UHGV virus genome: UHGV-0039782
DNA: 47,499 nt
Direction: 5' to 3' (one strand)
Source of the DNA: a virus
Positions within the stretch are counted from its first letter, which is position 1, and each line of letters starts with the position of its first letter. Shown here piece after piece: positions 5,652-38,806 of the stretch. Position numbers and translations under genes: made by a program. The notes below the pieces were generated by a model. The model was not told the origin of the DNA, made no database searches, and worked only from the letters and a program-made list of their open reading frames with translations.

Positions 5652-6077
5652 TCAATCTACATCTGAAAGCAAGCCAAAATAGAAAAGCGTGGCTTTTTTT
5701 AGTTGCTCAGCTCCGTACGCGATAGCTGCGAACTTGCCTTCTTTATGCGCCCCCTCAAGAAATTTACGCTGGCCTTTTGATACCTGGGATTTCGTTCTAT
5801 CTTCTTTCTTAAGCTCCATTACTGCGCAGGAATGAGCGGCACCATTGCTTAGTATAATTACGTCGCTCACGCCACTTTTTACGCCCATTTTTTTTCTCTT
5901 TATAACGAACTGCGCACCGCTTTTTGTCCCGGTTTCATTTGGAACATGAAACCATATAACGTCAGGGAAGTGATAATCCATCCACAACCCATAAGTCATC
6001 TGTTCCGTTTCCTCTGAATTACACTCTCCACGATAACCACTATCAAATACCCATATACCGCTATCAAGCTGCTTCAC
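5652..6077 (-). CDS. VRR-NUC domain nuclease
   Basis: 141 aa; ...SDVIIL...ELKKEDRTKSQVSKGQRKFLE... matches the VRR-NUC D/E-K core. Confidence 0.5.
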   Translation of the reverse strand: MKQLDSGIWVFDSGYRGECNSEETEQMTYGLWMDYHFPDVIWFHVPNETGTKSGAQFVIKRKKMGVKSGVSDVIILSNGAAHSCAVMELKKEDRTKSQVSKGQRKFLEGAHKEGKFAAIAYGAEQLKKATLFYFGLLSDVD

Positions 6078-7695
6078 TTTGTTCTCCTGTGAAATCTTTG
6101 CGGTGGATTATGTCACGGCCTTTATCGTTGATACGATGCGTGATGCGTTTCGGCGCTTTAATTAATCCCGCATACATCATGAATTGCTTGGCGTTCTGGC
6201 ATTTCAGGATTTTCCCGGCCATTGACTTATCATCAAGGTGAGGGAAGATGGCCTTTGCCTTGAACATGTTTTTCATGTGAGTTGCACCGCCGTAAGGGTA
6301 GAAAACCTCGTTAGCCCAGCCTTCTTTGCCATCACAACGATTAATCCAGTAGCGATATAAAATTCCCTCTCCGTCCTTCGTCAACTGGACTTTGAAGTCC
6401 ATAACATCAGCCCATTCGTTGTCGGTATACGCCCGCTCATTCAGTGCCGCATTCGGATCGCGCAAAACGTGATCGCAATGTCGGCAATAGCGAGCAGTGG
6501 GGTCGTTTTTAGTGCCGCAACCATCATCAAAAATGCGGATTCCGTGCTTATCAAAACCGCAACGGATGTAACTGAAAAACTCCTCGCAACGACCATCTGG
6601 CGACAATGCATCCTTGCCAATGCAGCGGCGAGCATATGGACTGTTCATTGTTCCGCATTTTGGGCACGGAACCTGTTCACCACTGCGTTTTGAACGCTGC
6701 GCCTCAGCTTCTTCAAGAATTGGGTCTTCATACAGCTGACCAAGCTCAAACATCGTGCCAGAGAAATCAAGAACCAGATGGTCTTCTTTATGATACCCGG
6801 CATCAATTTGCTCCTTCTTCAGCAGGCGCATCCCGCGACCAAGCAACTGAACAAGAAGGGTGAGTGACATTATTTTTCGCAATATGACGCTTGTATCCCA
6901 AAGCGGGATATTGACGCCAGTCGTCAAGCAACCAATCTGGAAAACATATTTAATCTTGCCAGTGTATGCGTCTTTTAACGCCTTGCGTCTGGCTTTCTGC
7001 CCCATATCCTCGGTGACGATAGCATAACTTCCTTCGGGTAAATATTTAGCCGCCTCATGACAGTGCTTCTTGCCAGCGCATGTAATCAATACGCCATTTC
7101 TGTTTTTTGTCAGCTCCATAACCTTGAGCATGATTTTCTGCGTGAGGGTTCCTTGCTCAAGGATTTCTTTCTGCATCTGCTTTAGTTGTTCGGCAGTGAA
7201 ATCCTGTGTGCCATCGCTTCCTGATGCCTCAAATGCTGACAGGTCGTAATGCAAATCATCAATGTCATGCAGGCCAAAAATCGTTGGAACAAGGAATCCA
7301 ATATCAACAAGATATTTGGTGTCAATGTTTACTATTTCATTTTTCCAGTAAGCACCCTTAATCGAGTCGGTGCCACGAAACGGACTGCCTGTATATCCAA
7401 TAACAATGACGTCGTGACCGTATTTAGCCTTACATCTGCGGTTAAGTTCAGTCATGATGACGCCATATTGCGTTTCAGGACTTTCACTTATCACGTCCTC
7501 CCAGTTCATCTGGTGGCAGTTATGAGCTACGAATCCATTTGCAACAAAGTTGTGATGGGTAGGCATCTCTATATCCCACACCATTTCATCACCAATTTCA
7601 TTTATTGACTCGATTACTTTTGATTTTGTATTCCACGCCATCTTCCATGTGGTCAGTAATTCTTTTAAAAAACTCATCCTGCGCTTCCTCATCAA
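6064..7695 (-). CDS. intein C-terminal splicing segment (blocks F/G, ...VWDIEMPTHHNFVANGFVAHN|C) fused to SF2 DExH helicase C-extein with C-terminal zinc ribbons
   Basis: HN followed by Cys at residues 59/60; downstream helicase motifs (TGSPFRG, QIGCLTTGVN, LLGRGMRL) and CPKC/CRHC zinc ribbons; the frame is closed by a TAA three codons upstream of the first start. Confidence 0.75.
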   Translation of the reverse strand: MMRKRRMSFLKELLTTWKMAWNTKSKVIESINEIGDEMVWDIEMPTHHNFVANGFVAHNCHQMNWEDVISESPETQYGVIMTELNRRCKAKYGHDVIVIGYTGSPFRGTDSIKGAYWKNEIVNIDTKYLVDIGFLVPTIFGLHDIDDLHYDLSAFEASGSDGTQDFTAEQLKQMQKEILEQGTLTQKIMLKVMELTKNRNGVLITCAGKKHCHEAAKYLPEGSYAIVTEDMGQKARRKALKDAYTGKIKYVFQIGCLTTGVNIPLWDTSVILRKIMSLTLLVQLLGRGMRLLKKEQIDAGYHKEDHLVLDFSGTMFELGQLYEDPILEEAEAQRSKRSGEQVPCPKCGTMNSPYARRCIGKDALSPDGRCEEFFSYIRCGFDKHGIRIFDDGCGTKNDPTARYCRHCDHVLRDPNAALNERAYTDNEWADVMDFKVQLTKDGEGILYRYWINRCDGKEGWANEVFYPYGGATHMKNMFKAKAIFPHLDDKSMAGKILKCQNAKQFMMYAGLIKAPKRITHRINDKGRDIIHRKDFTGEQSEAA

Positions 7696-8661
7696 AAATA
7701 TTTACATAAAACATTTCGCGCTTTTTCGTTCCGCCAATGTAAGAATTAACTCGCGCTCCATTTAATCCAAGAAAATCATTCAATGCATTGGCAACTTCCC
7801 AACATTCATCCCCCGCGAACGCCTCGGTGTGAATGAATACCTGTCTGTACTTGCCGTAAGATATTGATGAATGACCATCATCACCAAAATAAACAGCCCA
7901 ACCAACTTCGTTTAACTCCCTGCATATCTTTCCTATGTCGTACCCATTTGCAGAGTCACCATATTTCTCAGCGTACCTGTCAAGTATCTTTGTGCATGAT
8001 GTTCTAACCTGAAACCATTTATCACCGAATCCCGGATTATCTCTTTCTCTGTATGCTGCATTAAGTTTCTTGAATCTTGCAGCTTTGCACAGAGCGTGAT
8101 CTTTATTTCCCATATTCCACGCCAGTCTGTGCGTTCCCCTTTTTGTGTTCTTAATCAGGCATCCATCACCAGCAAGAGCGGCGAGTATGTTTTGATGCAA
8201 GAAGTCATCAATAACAAGGCCGCTATCAACGGTTGAATTATGATGACCAGACCTAAAATCAACATAGTAACCGTAAGGGTTTTCCAGTAACGCACTCAGC
8301 CCTTTGCTTGTGTGCGGAAAAACCTTTTCGCCACAGCCACACTTGCACGAAGGAGCTTTGTCATAAATCTGTCCGACGAGCCATCTAACGACAGAGTCAT
8401 CCCAGCCTTTAGTTTTCCCGCTTCTACCCAGCAACCGTCTGAATAAAGTTTGTGTGTACTCGTGCATTTTATTTCCTCACCGCCTATTAATTTAACTGAT
8501 GATACACGCTTTATACCATTAGTAAATACTCTTTTTGGTTTGTGGTACATCCATTCGCCAGTAACTTCATCTAAGCACTTGATTTCTTTATTTATTAAAC
8601 TATCGTCATCAATTCTCACCCATCCATCACTCGTTAATATCAGTGCATCACCAGTCAAGCA
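7519..8661 (-). other. intein element inserted in the helicase DExH motif; 381 codons end to end, carried as three ORFs in two frames
   Basis: N-terminal Cys codon at 8659-8661; C-terminal Asn codon at 7519-7521 followed by the Cys +1 codon; both ends share a frame but an in-frame TGA sits at 8296-8298. Confidence 0.6.
7598..8467 (-). CDS. LAGLIDADG homing endonuclease ORF nested in the intein-coding region in a different reading frame
   Basis: two LAGLIDADG motifs about 100 aa apart (ILAALAGDGCL and AVYFGDDGHS); own ATG preceded by GGTGAGG; overlaps the Int-N ORF by 172 nt and the Int-C ORF by 98 nt. Confidence 0.7.
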   Translation of the reverse strand: MHEYTQTLFRRLLGRSGKTKGWDDSVVRWLVGQIYDKAPSCKCGCGEKVFPHTSKGLSALLENPYGYYVDFRSGHHNSTVDSGLVIDDFLHQNILAALAGDGCLIKNTKRGTHRLAWNMGNKDHALCKAARFKKLNAAYRERDNPGFGDKWFQVRTSCTKILDRYAEKYGDSANGYDIGKICRELNEVGWAVYFGDDGHSSISYGKYRQVFIHTEAFAGDECWEVANALNDFLGLNGARVNSYIGGTKKREMFYVNIFDEEAQDEFFKRITDHMEDGVEYKIKSNRVNK

Positions 8662-9144
8662 CTCATCCATAAGAACAAAGCGAGGGCAAAAATCGGAAAG
8701 CGCACCTTTAGAAAGAATATTACCTGAGTCGTCCTTCTTATCGAAAAGACCATTTATTATTGTTCCCTCAGTGCCAGCAATAAGCGGGTATGCCGTAGAC
8801 TTTCTGCCAAGAGCAGCACTAAAAAGTGAGTTTTTCACACTCAGATTCCATAGTTCTTCCGCATCCTGCTCAATAATTTCTGGCTGCCTTGCAATAACAA
8901 GCCCTTCCCACCCCATATCCTGAAAGCGTCGCGCAATCATAGCAATCATGATCGTCTTACCAGCACCTACCGATGCCGTCACAAAACTTGGTTTCGGTTC
9001 TCTGCCAAACTTGCGGATAACTTCAGCCGTCTTTTCATAAACCAGCCACTGATAAGGTCGAGGCTCAATTTCCCCTGTATGAACAACTGACCGCAATTTG
9101 TCTATATCCAACTCCGCAATCATTGCGTCGATTTTATGCGTCAT
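8296..9144 (-). CDS. SF2 helicase N-extein (Walker A GAGKT, motif II VLMDE) fused to intein N-terminal segment (block A CLTGDALIL, block B TSTHKL), ending at a TGA
   Basis: intein begins with Cys162 immediately after LMDE, so the spliced junction would restore a DECH box; the 121-aa Int-N part ends in a stop. Confidence 0.75.
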   Translation of the reverse strand: MTHKIDAMIAELDIDKLRSVVHTGEIEPRPYQWLVYEKTAEVIRKFGREPKPSFVTASVGAGKTIMIAMIARRFQDMGWEGLVIARQPEIIEQDAEELWNLSVKNSLFSAALGRKSTAYPLIAGTEGTIINGLFDKKDDSGNILSKGALSDFCPRFVLMDECLTGDALILTSDGWVRIDDDSLINKEIKCLDEVTGEWMYHKPKRVFTNGIKRVSSVKLIGGEEIKCTSTHKLYSDGCWVEAGKLKAGMTLSLDGSSDRFMTKLLRASVAVAKRFFRTQAKG

Positions 9145-33346: not shown

Positions 33347-33371
33347 AAAGCCCCGCAAGGGGCTTTGGTTT
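33347..33371. terminator. bidirectional terminator (ends the plus head block and the minus operon)
   Basis: AAAGCCCC-gcaa-GGGGCTTTGGTTT. Confidence 0.7.
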
Positions 33372-33555
33372 ACTTACGATCTGGGTCTGCATAGAAGTTA
33401 ACCAACTTAATGAAATCTCGCTTTCCGCTATGGTTTAAATAAAAACCAGCAATTTCATTAAACGCTTCGTTTGCCGCTCTTACGCTGCAACCCATGTTTA
33501 AAGCATCACGTGCAGCGATGGCAGCCAGTTTTGTTTTCTCTTTGATGTCCATCAA
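33370..33555 (-). CDS. hypothetical small protein (last gene of the minus operon)
   Basis: 61-aa ORF. Confidence 0.4.
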   Translation of the reverse strand: MMDIKEKTKLAAIAARDALNMGCSVRAANEAFNEIAGFYLNHSGKRDFIKLVNFYADPDRK

Positions 33556-34097
33556 ACAATCCTCATCGGCATAACAACAATCTTCGCAGTCTCGCCAGAT
33601 GGCGCGCTAAGACAGCAAACTGCGGCATTTGTATTTCCATTCAACTCAAACTTAACGCCACTGAATTTAGGATTAAACAGCTTTGCCACTTTCTCAATAT
33701 CAACCAGATAACCAGCATTGAAGCCAATTTCATCTGCTGCTTTCGTTTCCTTTGGTATAACGCGATCAATATCAGGGAATCGACCATCAATCTCTTCGCA
33801 GATACCAGCACCAACCATCGTGTCCATATGACCAAAATGATAAGTAACGATTCCAGATTTTGTATCGATGATCGCATGGTTATATTTCTTTGTCGGAGAC
33901 TTGCTTACCTTTACAATCACATTTTCTGTCAGCTTATTGTCATGACTACCACCAATGAATGCGCGATGACCGTCAGTTGAGGCAATGCGACCATCAGGCA
34001 TGAAGCAGATACCATTCAGGTAATAACGCACATCATTGCGAGCCTGAAATATTAATGCTGATTCAAGTAATAATTTGCTGATTTTTAGTTTCATCAC
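33552..34097 (-). CDS. truncated DNA polymerase III beta sliding-clamp (DnaN) homologue lacking domain I
   Basis: 181 aa; collinear matches to E. coli DnaN domain II-III segments as I recall them: DVRYYLNG...TDGHR, DGRFPD..RV.PK, EIGFN..Y..D, AKIVVMPMRIV versus AAYVVMPMRL. Confidence 0.65.
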   Translation of the reverse strand: MMKLKISKLLLESALIFQARNDVRYYLNGICFMPDGRIASTDGHRAFIGGSHDNKLTENVIVKVSKSPTKKYNHAIIDTKSGIVTYHFGHMDTMVGAGICEEIDGRFPDIDRVIPKETKAADEIGFNAGYLVDIEKVAKLFNPKFSGVKFELNGNTNAAVCCLSAPSGETAKIVVMPMRIV

Positions 34098-34267
34098 TTC
34101 ACCTTAATCATGTGTTGTTTTGCAACTTTCAGGCATTCTTCAAAAATGCCTCCCTTCTTTGCGCTCTGATTGCGCTTGTAATACTGAATTGCCGCATCAA
34201 TTGCCATCTGGTCAATGTCTGGTAGCTTGGTGCGAAGTTGTTTTTCGATGAATTGCTCTGGTGTCAT
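34094..34267 (-). CDS. 57-aa small protein (MTPEQFIEKQLRTKLPDIDQMAIDAAIQYYKRNQ...)
   Basis: fills the 167-nt gap; ATGA overlaps at both ends. Confidence 0.3.
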   Translation of the reverse strand: MTPEQFIEKQLRTKLPDIDQMAIDAAIQYYKRNQSAKKGGIFEECLKVAKQHMIKVK

Positions 34268-34455
34268 AGCTTAACCCAGCCATGTCCGCGAACGTTATAA
34301 ACAAAACCTTTCTTTTTCAGCACCTGCATCCTCCTGTCAATAACCGTAATGTTTCTAACATCATCACGAAACTTAAGCCATATATCAAAAACAGGAGTTG
34401 GTTTAACAGAAAGCATGTGCAATATCTTCAAGTCCAACTCTTCATACTTACTCAT
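34264..34455 (-). CDS. hypothetical small protein
   Basis: 63-aa ORF. Confidence 0.4.
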   Translation of the reverse strand: MSKYEELDLKILHMLSVKPTPVFDIWLKFRDDVRNITVIDRRMQVLKKKGFVYNVRGHGWVKL

Positions 34456-34661
34456 CGCATCTTCTCCATCTTCTCGCGCTTCTTAAGACACTGTTTGCAT
34501 ATTGCGTCAGGCTTCCATGCTGATATATCTTCTCTTTCTCCACCAAACATCCATTTCCCACATTCACTAATAATCCTCCCATCGCTGAAATGGTGAACCT
34601 TCTTAGCCAGTAATGGGCCTCCCCATCCTGCAACTAACTTATCATCACGCTCGTTCATCAC
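34452..34661 (-). CDS. hypothetical zinc-ribbon protein
   Basis: CGKW...CKQC motifs. Confidence 0.4.
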   Translation of the reverse strand: MMNERDDKLVAGWGGPLLAKKVHHFSDGRIISECGKWMFGGEREDISAWKPDAICKQCLKKREKMEKMR

Positions 34662-35467
34662 ATCTTCTCCAGAATTGCCATAACCTCGTGAATATCAGCA
34701 ACAGGAATCTGGATAAACTCCTCATCCTCAGCCACCACGTGACCAGCAGGGAGAATCACATGGTCGGCTGGCTTCAGTAACTCAATCAGGCGGTCTACCG
34801 GCTTAATCTTTTTCGACTTCAACACCTTCGCCGTGACCTTATCCTTGCCTTGCGCCTTCGCCTCTTCGACTGCTTCGTCGATAACTTTTACCGCATCATC
34901 GCCATGCTCACGCGTCACTGCTACGGCATTTGCATAACTGATTTGCCCGGCACTGATGCGTGCTTTTACTTCTGCTGGCACATCACCCAGCGACAGATGC
35001 ATTTGCACGTCAGATACTGAGCGGCCTACCTTTTTGGCGATTTCTTCATTCGTCCAGCCAAAGCCTTTAAGCCGCGTGTAAGCCTTTGCGCGTTCAAACG
35101 GGTCAAGATGCTTACCCTGACTGGATGACACCATGAAGGCGATTTTATCCGCCTCATCGCCAGTGAAATCCTTGCACTCAATACGAACGATTGGCGCTCC
35201 ACGTTCAATGGCACGCAATGCGCCGAGATAGCGATGCTGACCATCAAGAATGCGGATTCCCTTCTCGTCCGGAATAACTGTTAATGCTGGCAATGGCTGA
35301 CCTGATTCCCAGCACTGAGCGAAATATTCAACGTGTTGCTCGTCTGCTTCGCGGATGTTGTATCCCGGCTCCAGATAGATTTGCTCCACTGGCACGAGAT
35401 AGGTTTTGTTAACAGCGATGCCGTTGCGCGTTTCTTTGTCTGAATAGATTTTGCTTAGTGTTTTCAT
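34658..35467 (-). CDS. ParB/Srx-like nuclease-domain protein with HTH
   Basis: ParB N-terminal domain signature GIRILDGQHRYLGA and a helix-turn-helix (EEIAKKVGRSVSDV). Confidence 0.65.
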   Translation of the reverse strand: MKTLSKIYSDKETRNGIAVNKTYLVPVEQIYLEPGYNIREADEQHVEYFAQCWESGQPLPALTVIPDEKGIRILDGQHRYLGALRAIERGAPIVRIECKDFTGDEADKIAFMVSSSQGKHLDPFERAKAYTRLKGFGWTNEEIAKKVGRSVSDVQMHLSLGDVPAEVKARISAGQISYANAVAVTREHGDDAVKVIDEAVEEAKAQGKDKVTAKVLKSKKIKPVDRLIELLKPADHVILPAGHVVAEDEEFIQIPVADIHEVMAILEKM

Positions 35468-35772
35468 TGTTTCTTCCCTAATGCTTTCTTGATTGCTTTG
35501 TTTGCCAGATTTAATGGATGGTCTTCATGGCAATCATCAGGCGATACTGCGCAAACATCCTCAACACAATCGCGAAGCTGGCGAAGAGCTTCAAGAAGTT
35601 CTGGTGCTGATGTTATAATATTTGAGTTAGCCTTCTTCACCGATTCAGACTCCCTAACACTCATTACTTCTGCTACATAAATATCACCAGACCAAATTGA
35701 TGTACGCGCTTCACCAGTAAATAAAGAATGATTGGTCCACTGACCTTTCGTGCCTTTGAATTCATCTTTCAT
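35464..35772 (-). CDS. hypothetical protein, FKGT(R/K)GxW family; paralogue of 22071-22370
   Basis: shared N- and C-terminal motifs with the 22071 ORF. Confidence 0.5.
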   Translation of the reverse strand: MKDEFKGTKGQWTNHSLFTGEARTSIWSGDIYVAEVMSVRESESVKKANSNIITSAPELLEALRQLRDCVEDVCAVSPDDCHEDHPLNLANKAIKKALGKKQ

Positions 35773-35773
35773 A

Positions 35774-35965
35774 TCATTCACCACTTTCTTCTAATAAGAG
35801 TTCATAGTTTGCAATATATGCATTAGCCAGATAATACATTTGCTCTGCGGCACAGCGCTCTGGCACGCTAAAGTCATCAATAGAACCAGCATTGCTAAGT
35901 GCATCAACACAATTTCGGAAATCAGCCATAGTATTTCGGAACATACAGTAGGACATATTTGCCAT
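35774..35965 (-). CDS. hypothetical small protein
   Basis: 63-aa ORF. Confidence 0.4.
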   Translation of the reverse strand: MANMSYCMFRNTMADFRNCVDALSNAGSIDDFSVPERCAAEQMYYLANAYIANYELLLEESGE

Positions 35966-35967
35966 GA

Positions 35968-36228
35968 TTACTCCTCATCACCCTGAAAAATGCCGCCAAA
36001 CTCTTCAACCAGCTCATCAATACATTCGTCCGCCTCAGCGCAATTTCCAGCCGCACTCAGCAGAATATCAACCGCCTCATCATCAGGAATGTTGATTGCT
36101 GAGAAAAACTCAACAATGCACATTTTCACAACCTGATATTCACCTTCAGTCTGGCAAGAAGCAAAGCTGCAAGCGACCGCATCAATCAACTTGGCTTTGT
36201 CATCACTTGGGTTATCAATATCAAACAT
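35968..36228 (-). CDS. small strongly acidic protein (first gene of the minus operon)
   Basis: 86 aa rich in Asp/Glu (DDEAVDILL...DECIDELVEEFGGIFQGDEE), SD GAGGTGATG. Confidence 0.45.
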   Translation of the reverse strand: MFDIDNPSDDKAKLIDAVACSFASCQTEGEYQVVKMCIVEFFSAINIPDDEAVDILLSAAGNCAEADECIDELVEEFGGIFQGDEE

Positions 36229-36268: not shown

Positions 36269-36297
36269 ACTATAAACACACTATCAATCTACGTCAA
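36269..36297 (-). promoter_or_regulatory. sigma70-like promoter for the minus-strand operon 36228-33370
   Basis: on the minus strand TTGACG (plus 36292-36297), 17-bp spacer, TATAGT (plus 36269-36274); the -35 lies inside the CAATCTACGTCAACA motif. Confidence 0.55.
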
Positions 36298-38729: not shown

Positions 38730-38806
38730 TGGTGGACGCGGAAGGATTTGAACCTTCAATCAGCCGATTATGAGTCGGTTGCTTTAACCAATTAAGCTAC
38801 GCGTCC
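38730..38806 (-). tRNA. tRNA-Met (anticodon CAU, elongator-type; could be tRNA-Ile2 if lysidine-modified), with CCA encoded
   Basis: hand-folded cloverleaf: 7-bp acceptor GGACGCG/CGCGTCC, D-arm GCTT/AAGC, anticodon loop CUCAUAA (CAU at plus 38770-38772), T-arm GAAGG-TTCAAAT-CCTTC, 3' ACCA. Confidence 0.8.

Follow-up and report, generated by a model that had tools for sequence, protein, structure and literature searches.

The half-clamp gene and its product

The stretch of DNA analysed here, referred to below as the window, is UHGV virus genome UHGV-0039782 at its full length of 47,499 nucleotides, a siphovirus genome (~47.5 kb) whose nearest phages over a 4-kb query region are Escherichia phages vB_EcoS Sa179lw and swi2 (Swiduovirus) and Shigella phage Sf11 (88-91% nucleotide identity). 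Its minus strand carries a gene for a small homologue of the bacterial beta sliding clamp (DnaN, hereafter beta), which we call the half-clamp. The gene and the two parts of beta to which its product corresponds are placed as follows.

33552..34097, minus strand: half-clamp coding sequence, from the list of open reading frames (ORFs); 181 amino acids (aa) when counted from the GTG at 34097
33741..34097, minus strand: equivalent of domain II, residues 4-119 = beta 128-253, in the hhalign register (feature entered as residues 1-119)
33555..33740, minus strand: equivalent of the second half of domain III, residues 120-180 = beta 313-366, from hhalign and the second HMMER/BLAST segment (feature entered as residues 120-181)

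The true start is most likely the ATG at 34094, which yields a product of 180 aa, because homologues are 178-180 aa long. This ATG lies one codon inside the GTG (GTGATG), is overlapped by the stop codon of the upstream gene and is preceded by AAGGTGA.

The original prediction for this locus, made from the letters alone, had claimed collinear homology to DnaN, and this claim is borne out by sequence searches, profile comparison and structure modelling alike. A phmmer search of all PDB chains returned almost exclusively beta clamps (best E ~3e-12, E. coli-type), aligned in two segments, query 8-156 with beta 136-289 and query 122-180 with beta 313-366; BLASTP against E. coli K-12 DnaN gave 2e-14; and hhalign of a profile of 113 diverse family members against E. 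coli DnaN gave a probability of 99.5% and E = 4.4e-22. The AlphaFold2 model built from the same 113-member alignment (predicted local distance difference test score, pLDDT, 97; predicted template modelling score, pTM, 0.91) agrees with beta in fold and curvature across 149-164 residues and shows the clamp fold, with its beta-alpha-beta-beta-beta repeats, outer sheet and inner helices. The structural likeness to a clamp that had been put forward as a check was therefore found, rather than the absence of the fold on which the prediction would have fallen.

Scores against curated models are much lower. The half-clamp reaches 35.2 bits with TIGR00663 (DnaN), for which the cut-off is 137.65, and 17 and 14.9 bits with PF02767 and PF02768, for both of which it is 27; the Pfam search gave no match to PF00712, beta domain I. 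The half-clamp is thus a DnaN homologue that stands outside the DnaN family proper, given its deletions, its lack of the dimer interface and its sub-threshold scores against curated models. Relative to the bacterial clamp itself (E. coli, PDB 1MMI/2POL) it is half-sized, and basic rather than acidic.

Loss of the dimer interface

Taking the residue register from the hhalign alignment of the family profile with E. coli DnaN, neither beta 1-127 (domain I) nor beta 254-312 (the first half of domain III, a gap of ~59 residues) has a counterpart in the half-clamp, the C-terminus of which falls one residue past the position of beta's end. This confirms the earlier statement that domain I is absent and the other domains shortened, so that a normal three-domain protomer cannot form. 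Only two long helices are present in the model (DSSP), at residues 8-17 and 128-141, and by alignment they would be alpha1 of domain II and alpha2 of domain III, respectively; from the six-fold pseudo-symmetry of the clamp, both should flank the junction between domains II and III. In the subfamily to which this half-clamp belongs, strand and loop take the place of helix alpha2 of domain II, and some longer, distant family members appear to retain a helix-like segment at that site.

The dimer interface of beta consists of I78 and F106 packed on I272 and L273, and of K74, R96, R103 and R105 ion-paired with E298, E300, E301, E303 and E304 (PMC11139829). All 13 of these residues map to segments that are missing from the half-clamp, either beta 1-127 or beta 254-312, and judged by this alignment the protein cannot use the canonical ring interface. 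The interpretation offered in the original prediction is partly upheld. Its proposal that the half-clamp heterodimerises with or caps the host clamp runs into the loss of the interface segments. Under that proposal the protein would poison the host clamp by occupying a beta protomer and blocking ring closure, and the one point in its favour is that a beta homologue is made in the same cytoplasm. The interface, however, requires residues of domain I (K74, I78, R96, R103, R105 and F106) together with beta 272-304, neither of which the half-clamp possesses, and the host beta dimer is extremely stable, with a picomolar dissociation constant and a half-life of ~43 h (PMC11139829). We consider capping of this kind very improbable.

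The best experimental proxy for the behaviour of a pocket outside a ring is engineered monomeric beta (I272A/L273A), which like the half-clamp cannot close a ring and keeps its pocket for client proteins; it binds DNA, and it binds the clamp-loader subunit delta ~50-fold more tightly than dimeric beta does (PMC11139829). The proxy differs in being a laboratory protein with all three domains that does not support processive synthesis, whereas the half-clamp is natural, minimised and basic. A shortened form of the clamp is beta*, a UV-induced internal dnaN product of ~26 kDa spanning domains II-III, which Skaliter et al. and Paz-Elizur et al. reportedly described in J Biol Chem in 1996 as active as a clamp, with a trimeric ring proposed. 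The half-clamp resembles E. coli beta*, as this is said to be built, in beginning near the boundary of domains I and II and lacking domain I. Unlike the half-clamp, beta* reportedly has the whole of domain III with its I272/L273 helix, and the half-clamp is a separate, anciently diverged gene family and not the product of an internal start.

Retention of the client-docking pocket

Proteins that dock on beta do so through a clamp-binding motif (CBM, QL[SD]LF-type), carried by polymerases, clamp-loader delta, Hda and mismatch-repair proteins. The pocket that receives it is hydrophobic and has two subsites: subsite I comprises R152, L155, T172, G174, H175, R176, L177, P242, R246, V247, V360 and M362, and subsite II comprises H175, N320, Y323, V344, M362, P363, M364 and R365 (PMC11139829). 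The segments of the half-clamp that correspond to this pocket are the following.

34011..34034, minus strand: DVRYYLNG, residues 22-29, identical to beta D150-G157; holds pocket R152 and L155 and the DNA-contact loop; 90-97% conserved in the family
33960..33977, minus strand: TDGHRA, residues 41-46 = beta T172-L177; subsite I, with the bridging His175 (pocket definition from PMC11139829)
33759..33788, minus strand: DGRFPDIDRV, residues 104-113 = beta D238-V247; pocket P242, R246 and V247, by alignment
33708..33731, minus strand: EIGFNAGY, residues 123-130 = beta E316-Y323; N320 and Y323 of pocket subsite II, by alignment
33558..33578, minus strand: VVMPMRI, residues 174-180 = the beta tail V360-L366; pocket V360, M362, P363, M364 and R365, by alignment

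The pocket has fared quite differently from the interface. Identity to E. coli beta is 16/18 at pocket positions, compared with 37/128 at aligned positions elsewhere (Fisher p = 1.4e-6), and across the 113-member family mean column conservation is 0.74 in the pocket and 0.38 outside it (Mann-Whitney p = 4e-7). Of the 12 family columns that are nearly invariant, nine belong to the pocket, among them the exposed polar residues R24, H44 and R179 (beta R152, H175 and R365). Columns of at least 70% identity lie nearly all in or beside the pocket, and no second conserved surface was seen in the family alignment. On sequence evidence, then, the CBM-binding pocket between domains II and III is preserved, and the half-clamp is a minimal module around that pocket from which both ring-closing ends have been trimmed.

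A pocket that is intact at the sequence level, and is the one used by delta and the polymerases, would also be expected of a genuine ring clamp loaded by the host clamp loader, for instance one of four 1.5-domain protomers with their half-domains III paired on a two-fold axis. The beta-like fold and curvature of the model over 149-164 residues fit such a ring, and the pseudo-two-fold inside clamp domains should make the pairing of half-domains geometrically conceivable. Such a ring would be akin to the trimer proposed for E. coli beta* or to the trimers of PCNA and gp45, and the clamp activity reported for beta* speaks for it. We nevertheless regard a ring as improbable. Both natural ring-closing surfaces are missing (0/13 interface residues have a counterpart), only two channel-lining helices are available per protomer, no conserved surface outside the pocket hints at an oligomer interface, and the window phage has no clamp-loader gene.

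A widespread phage family under selection

The half-clamp belongs to a family found widely among proteobacterial siphoviruses and in lambdoid prophages, and shares the length and deletion pattern of that family. Residues 2-180, essentially its full length, match phrog_3007 (E = 2.6e-61), and there are 850 close homologues; more than 130 clusters at 50% identity are of 165-220 aa, and many structural neighbours of 178-209 aa in BFVD have template modelling (TM) scores of 0.74-0.88. A weak structural match in the same database (E = 4e-5, TMq 0.39) is to A0A6J7W9M3_1, a 1394-aa protein of an uncultured Caudovirales phage, and lies inside a protein labelled 'large polyvalent protein-associated domain'; the match gives a hint of a clamp-like module fused into polyvalent conflict proteins, and is too weak to be relied upon.

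Being shorter than dnaN and scoring below the Pfam and NCBIfam cut-offs, the gene could be taken for a decaying, functionless fragment of a captured dnaN. Against this stand a ratio of non-synonymous to synonymous substitution rates (dN/dS) of 0.07-0.23 (median 0.15, against 30 relatives), constant length in more than 130 clusters, a model with pLDDT 97 and translational coupling inside an operon. Since the gene is under selection and its family constant in size, we conclude that it is not a relic, and attach next to no weight to decay.

Submitters have long labelled family members 'DNA polymerase III beta subunit', and also 'DNA polymerase', so the existence of the family is not new. PHROG 3007 is in turn named 'RusA-like Holliday junction resolvase', a name that has been copied into RefSeq (NC_054649, NC_054637, NC_054636, NC_031924 and others). 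That identity can be dismissed almost entirely, as the RusA family (PF05866) is not among the Pfam matches at E <= 10 and the fold is that of a clamp. A large phage family is consequently mislabelled in two ways, one label implying a replicase subunit and the other, spread by PHROG-based annotation, being wrong. No PADLOC-DB family matches the half-clamp at E <= 1, and our literature search, which covered SO-1 gp7 and DnaN-like phage proteins, found no structural or functional study of the phage mini-clamp family. What is new here is the exact architecture, the finding that interface and pocket residues have met opposite fates, and the prediction of a non-ring function confined to the pocket.

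A possible soluble receptor for clamp clients

We propose, with confidence that falls a little short of even, that the half-clamp is a stand-alone, non-ring pocket module that binds CBMs and competes with the host beta dimer (beta2) for clamp clients; host proteins that dock in the pocket would probably be intercepted by it, without any sliding on DNA. Made early from a host-type promoter, or in lambdoid relatives from the P_R operon along with the replication genes, the protein would act as a soluble, single-pocket receptor for CBM peptides and would strip accessory clients (Hda, and with it regulatory DnaA inactivation, or RIDA, translesion polymerases, MutL/MutS and free delta) from clamps, while processive synthesis by Pol III would stay usable by a phage with no polymerase of its own. 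The outcome would be relief from Hda control, from translesion polymerases (abundant after SOS induction, and relevant for prophages whose repressor is of the S24 type) or from mismatch repair.

Published affinities give this proposal a quantitative footing. As peptides, single-motif clients bind beta at 0.4-3 µM (Hda 0.38, Pol IV 1.6 and Pol II 1.7; PMC11139829 Table 1), whereas delta binds monomeric beta at ~7.5 nM and Pol III core binds DNA-loaded beta2 at <5 nM, and cryo-electron microscopy places alpha and epsilon on separate protomers of the beta dimer (PMC11139829). Because accessory clients depend on one motif and the replicase on two motifs plus DNA, a soluble pocket should be a good competitor for the accessory clients and a poor one for the replicase at work, and sparing of the replicase would make the half-clamp compatible with phages that rely on Pol III. 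That disturbed occupancy of the pocket by CBMs has strong effects on the host is known from Mu MuC, a CBM-bearing activator whose overexpression derails Hda/RIDA (PMC12867686). MuC and Twort Gp168, which binds the clamp channel (PDB 7EVP), are likewise cases of phage manipulation of the clamp interaction network; both bind the host clamp, whereas the half-clamp copies the receptor site, and its targets would be the clients of the clamp.

Our more tentative suggestion is that phages have evolved a clamp 'receptor decoy', deployed early in infection or induction, that rewires host access to DNA-loaded clamps. The beta pocket is a hub that coordinates replication, repair, translesion synthesis and initiation control, and is also an antibiotic target. 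If the suggestion is right, the half-clamp represents a previously undescribed class of host-takeover factor, aimed at the clamp's clients and not at the clamp; a natural, soluble 20-kDa copy of the pocket would show what portion of the clamp suffices for clients to be recognised and provide a tool for titrating clients in vivo; and a strategy by which polymerase-less phages manage the host replisome would be revealed.

Several observations weigh against a soluble receptor. In genuine DnaN, too, conservation is highest at the pocket, for which reason retention of the pocket proves constraint and does not reveal the identity of the ligand. Because delta binds monomeric beta very tightly, a soluble pocket could poison clamp loading, at a cost that Pol III-dependent phages could not afford, and selectivity for the accessory clients is assumed. 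Finally, the basic isoelectric point (pI) of the family, the lysines of its channel helix and its positions in replication modules (see below) are explained at least equally well by a tether bound to DNA.

Such a tether would resemble herpesvirus UL42, being a non-ring protein with its basic concave face on DNA, while a CBM-bearing polymerase (host Pol III core or Pol I/II), or else the clamp loader, is kept in the pocket at forks or origins of the phage; it would provide the phage with a loader-independent or phage-dedicated factor for processivity or recruitment. The whole family is shifted towards basic values (median pI 8.3, with 65% of members above 7.5, compared with 5.4 for the equivalent segment of E. 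coli beta), K or R is conserved at half-clamp positions 136, 139 and 144, located on the helix that lines the DNA channel in beta or following it, and the DNA-contact loop of beta is kept (residues 21-26 = beta Q149-Y154). Moreover, DNA is still bound by monomeric beta (PMC11139829), and a phage without a polymerase must engage host Pol III. The same monomeric variant is, however, unable to tether Pol III for processive synthesis (PMC11139829), and loss of the second helix of domain II and of half of domain III leaves little DNA-facing surface. The herpesvirus factors UL42, UL44, BMRF1 and PF-8 also differ from the half-clamp in having two complete clamp domains, in lacking sequence similarity to it and in their mode of polymerase docking, and they partner a virus-encoded polymerase, of which the window phage has none. 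With the evidence of gene position given below, we judge a tether unlikely, at about half the weight given to a soluble receptor.

Gene context across phages

We surveyed the neighbours of the half-clamp gene by BLAST-level clustering at 75 IMG/VR loci, which fall into 12 half-clamp lineages. No neighbour family is common to more than four of the 12 lineages, and it follows that the half-clamp has no obligate adjacent partner. In lineage 1, which consists of 31 lambdoid loci (within L040-L075 of IMG/VR), and in Hafnia phage yong1 (L088), the order is cI (S24 peptidase/helix-turn-helix, on the opposite strand), cII, half-clamp, Phage_rep_O and a DnaB-type helicase or DnaC-like protein. The arrangement of cII, half-clamp and Phage_rep_O is that of the P_R replication operon, and the repressor is of the SOS-cleavable S24 type at 24 or more of the 31 lambdoid loci. 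The half-clamp gene also follows the replication genes Phg_2220_C and IstB-like at locus L084, and a helicase and a VRR-NUC nuclease in Pantoea phage LIET2. Placement in the replication modules of the lambdoid loci, yong1, L084 and LIET2 is what a DNA-bound tether would lead one to expect.

The half-clamp gene precedes a Dam methylase and a single-stranded DNA-binding protein (SSB) in Vibrio phage PVP-XSN, and in the temperate Pseudomonas phage TC7, which is lambda-like and in which we found no DNA polymerase, its place is in the early-left operon, with a C5 methylase and a ParB-like gene close by. It stands alone and in opposite orientation within the head modules of Sodalis phage SO-1, where it is annotated as a possible moron, and of Escherichia phage Schulenburg, where it has its own terminators; a lone moron-like gene of this kind argues against the tether. 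Schulenburg also encodes its own family-A polymerase (PolA). This rules out the half-clamp as a marker of polymerase-less phages, the gene being tied to neither the presence nor the absence of a phage polymerase, and it counts further against a tether that the PolA in question has no CBM. In the window, too, more than 20 kb separate the half-clamp gene from the replication genes, and the first product of its operon is a protein of anti-restriction type, a position that the tether does not readily accommodate.

The operon in the window

The half-clamp gene is the eighth of nine genes in a leftward operon, bounded by the following features.

33370..36228, minus strand: leftward operon of nine genes (from ORFs, PHROG matches and spacing)
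36269..36297, minus strand: best sigma-70-like promoter, TTGACG-17-TATAGT, matching 10/12 positions in a consensus scan only; 41 nt upstream of the first gene
35968-36228, minus strand: very acidic 86-aa protein, PHROG 14587 'anti-restriction protein', moron/host-takeover category
34658-35467, minus strand: ParB-like protein of the nuclease-domain type, three genes upstream of the half-clamp (PHROG)
33347..33366, no strand assigned: bidirectional intrinsic-terminator-like hairpin, AAAGCCCCGCAAGGGGCTTT, closing the operon against the convergent head-gene operon

Adjacent genes overlap by 1-11 nt or are separated by gaps of 2 nt, and encode, in order, the 86-aa acidic protein, which may be a DNA mimic, proteins of 63 and 106 aa, the ParB-like protein, proteins of 69, 63 and 57 aa, the half-clamp and a protein of 61 aa (33370-33555); apart from those named, the members are small proteins with no assigned function. 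Adjacency of the ParB-like and half-clamp genes is conserved only within the phage lineage of the window, with an analogous gene near the half-clamp of TC7. In phmmer searches with the ParB-like protein and a methyltransferase as queries, the ParB was found in the window's own lineage alone.

Replication genes and other features of the window

The replication set of the window phage comprises an SSB, an Erf-like annealing protein, an exonuclease, two helicases and a primase. No DNA polymerase is encoded in the window, all of whose ORFs of 450 aa or more have been accounted for, or in the fully annotated swi2. Strict CBM matches in the window proteome number four, none of them terminal and two in spurious ORFs, which is roughly the chance expectation by our estimate, and a search of the replication proteins, both the window's and Schulenburg's, turned up no canonical CBM. 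As no CBM-bearing phage partner was detected, host ligands are indicated for the half-clamp.

The phage SSB (3054-3557, minus strand) ends in DFDDSIPF, a close match to the C-terminal tail of E. coli SSB. The E. coli tail is DFDDDIPF and recruits host partners including the clamp-loader chi subunit. The phage tail is thus a possible route by which a polymerase-less phage could engage the host Pol III holoenzyme.

One helicase gene (6064-9144, minus strand) is interrupted, residues 2-157 of the swi2 helicase corresponding to 9138..8662 and residues 138-640 to 7551..6067. Within the insertion, which is ~1.1 kb long, is an ORF of 289 aa (7598..8467) with the LAGLIDADG-like motifs LAALAGDGCL and YFGDDGHS. 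A stop codon separates the helicase exon ORFs, which are in the same frame, and for this reason an intron-borne homing endonuclease is suggested and an intein disfavoured; no Rfam intron model matched the insertion. The window also contains a lone tRNA-Met (CAT) gene (38730-38806, minus strand), as does swi2.
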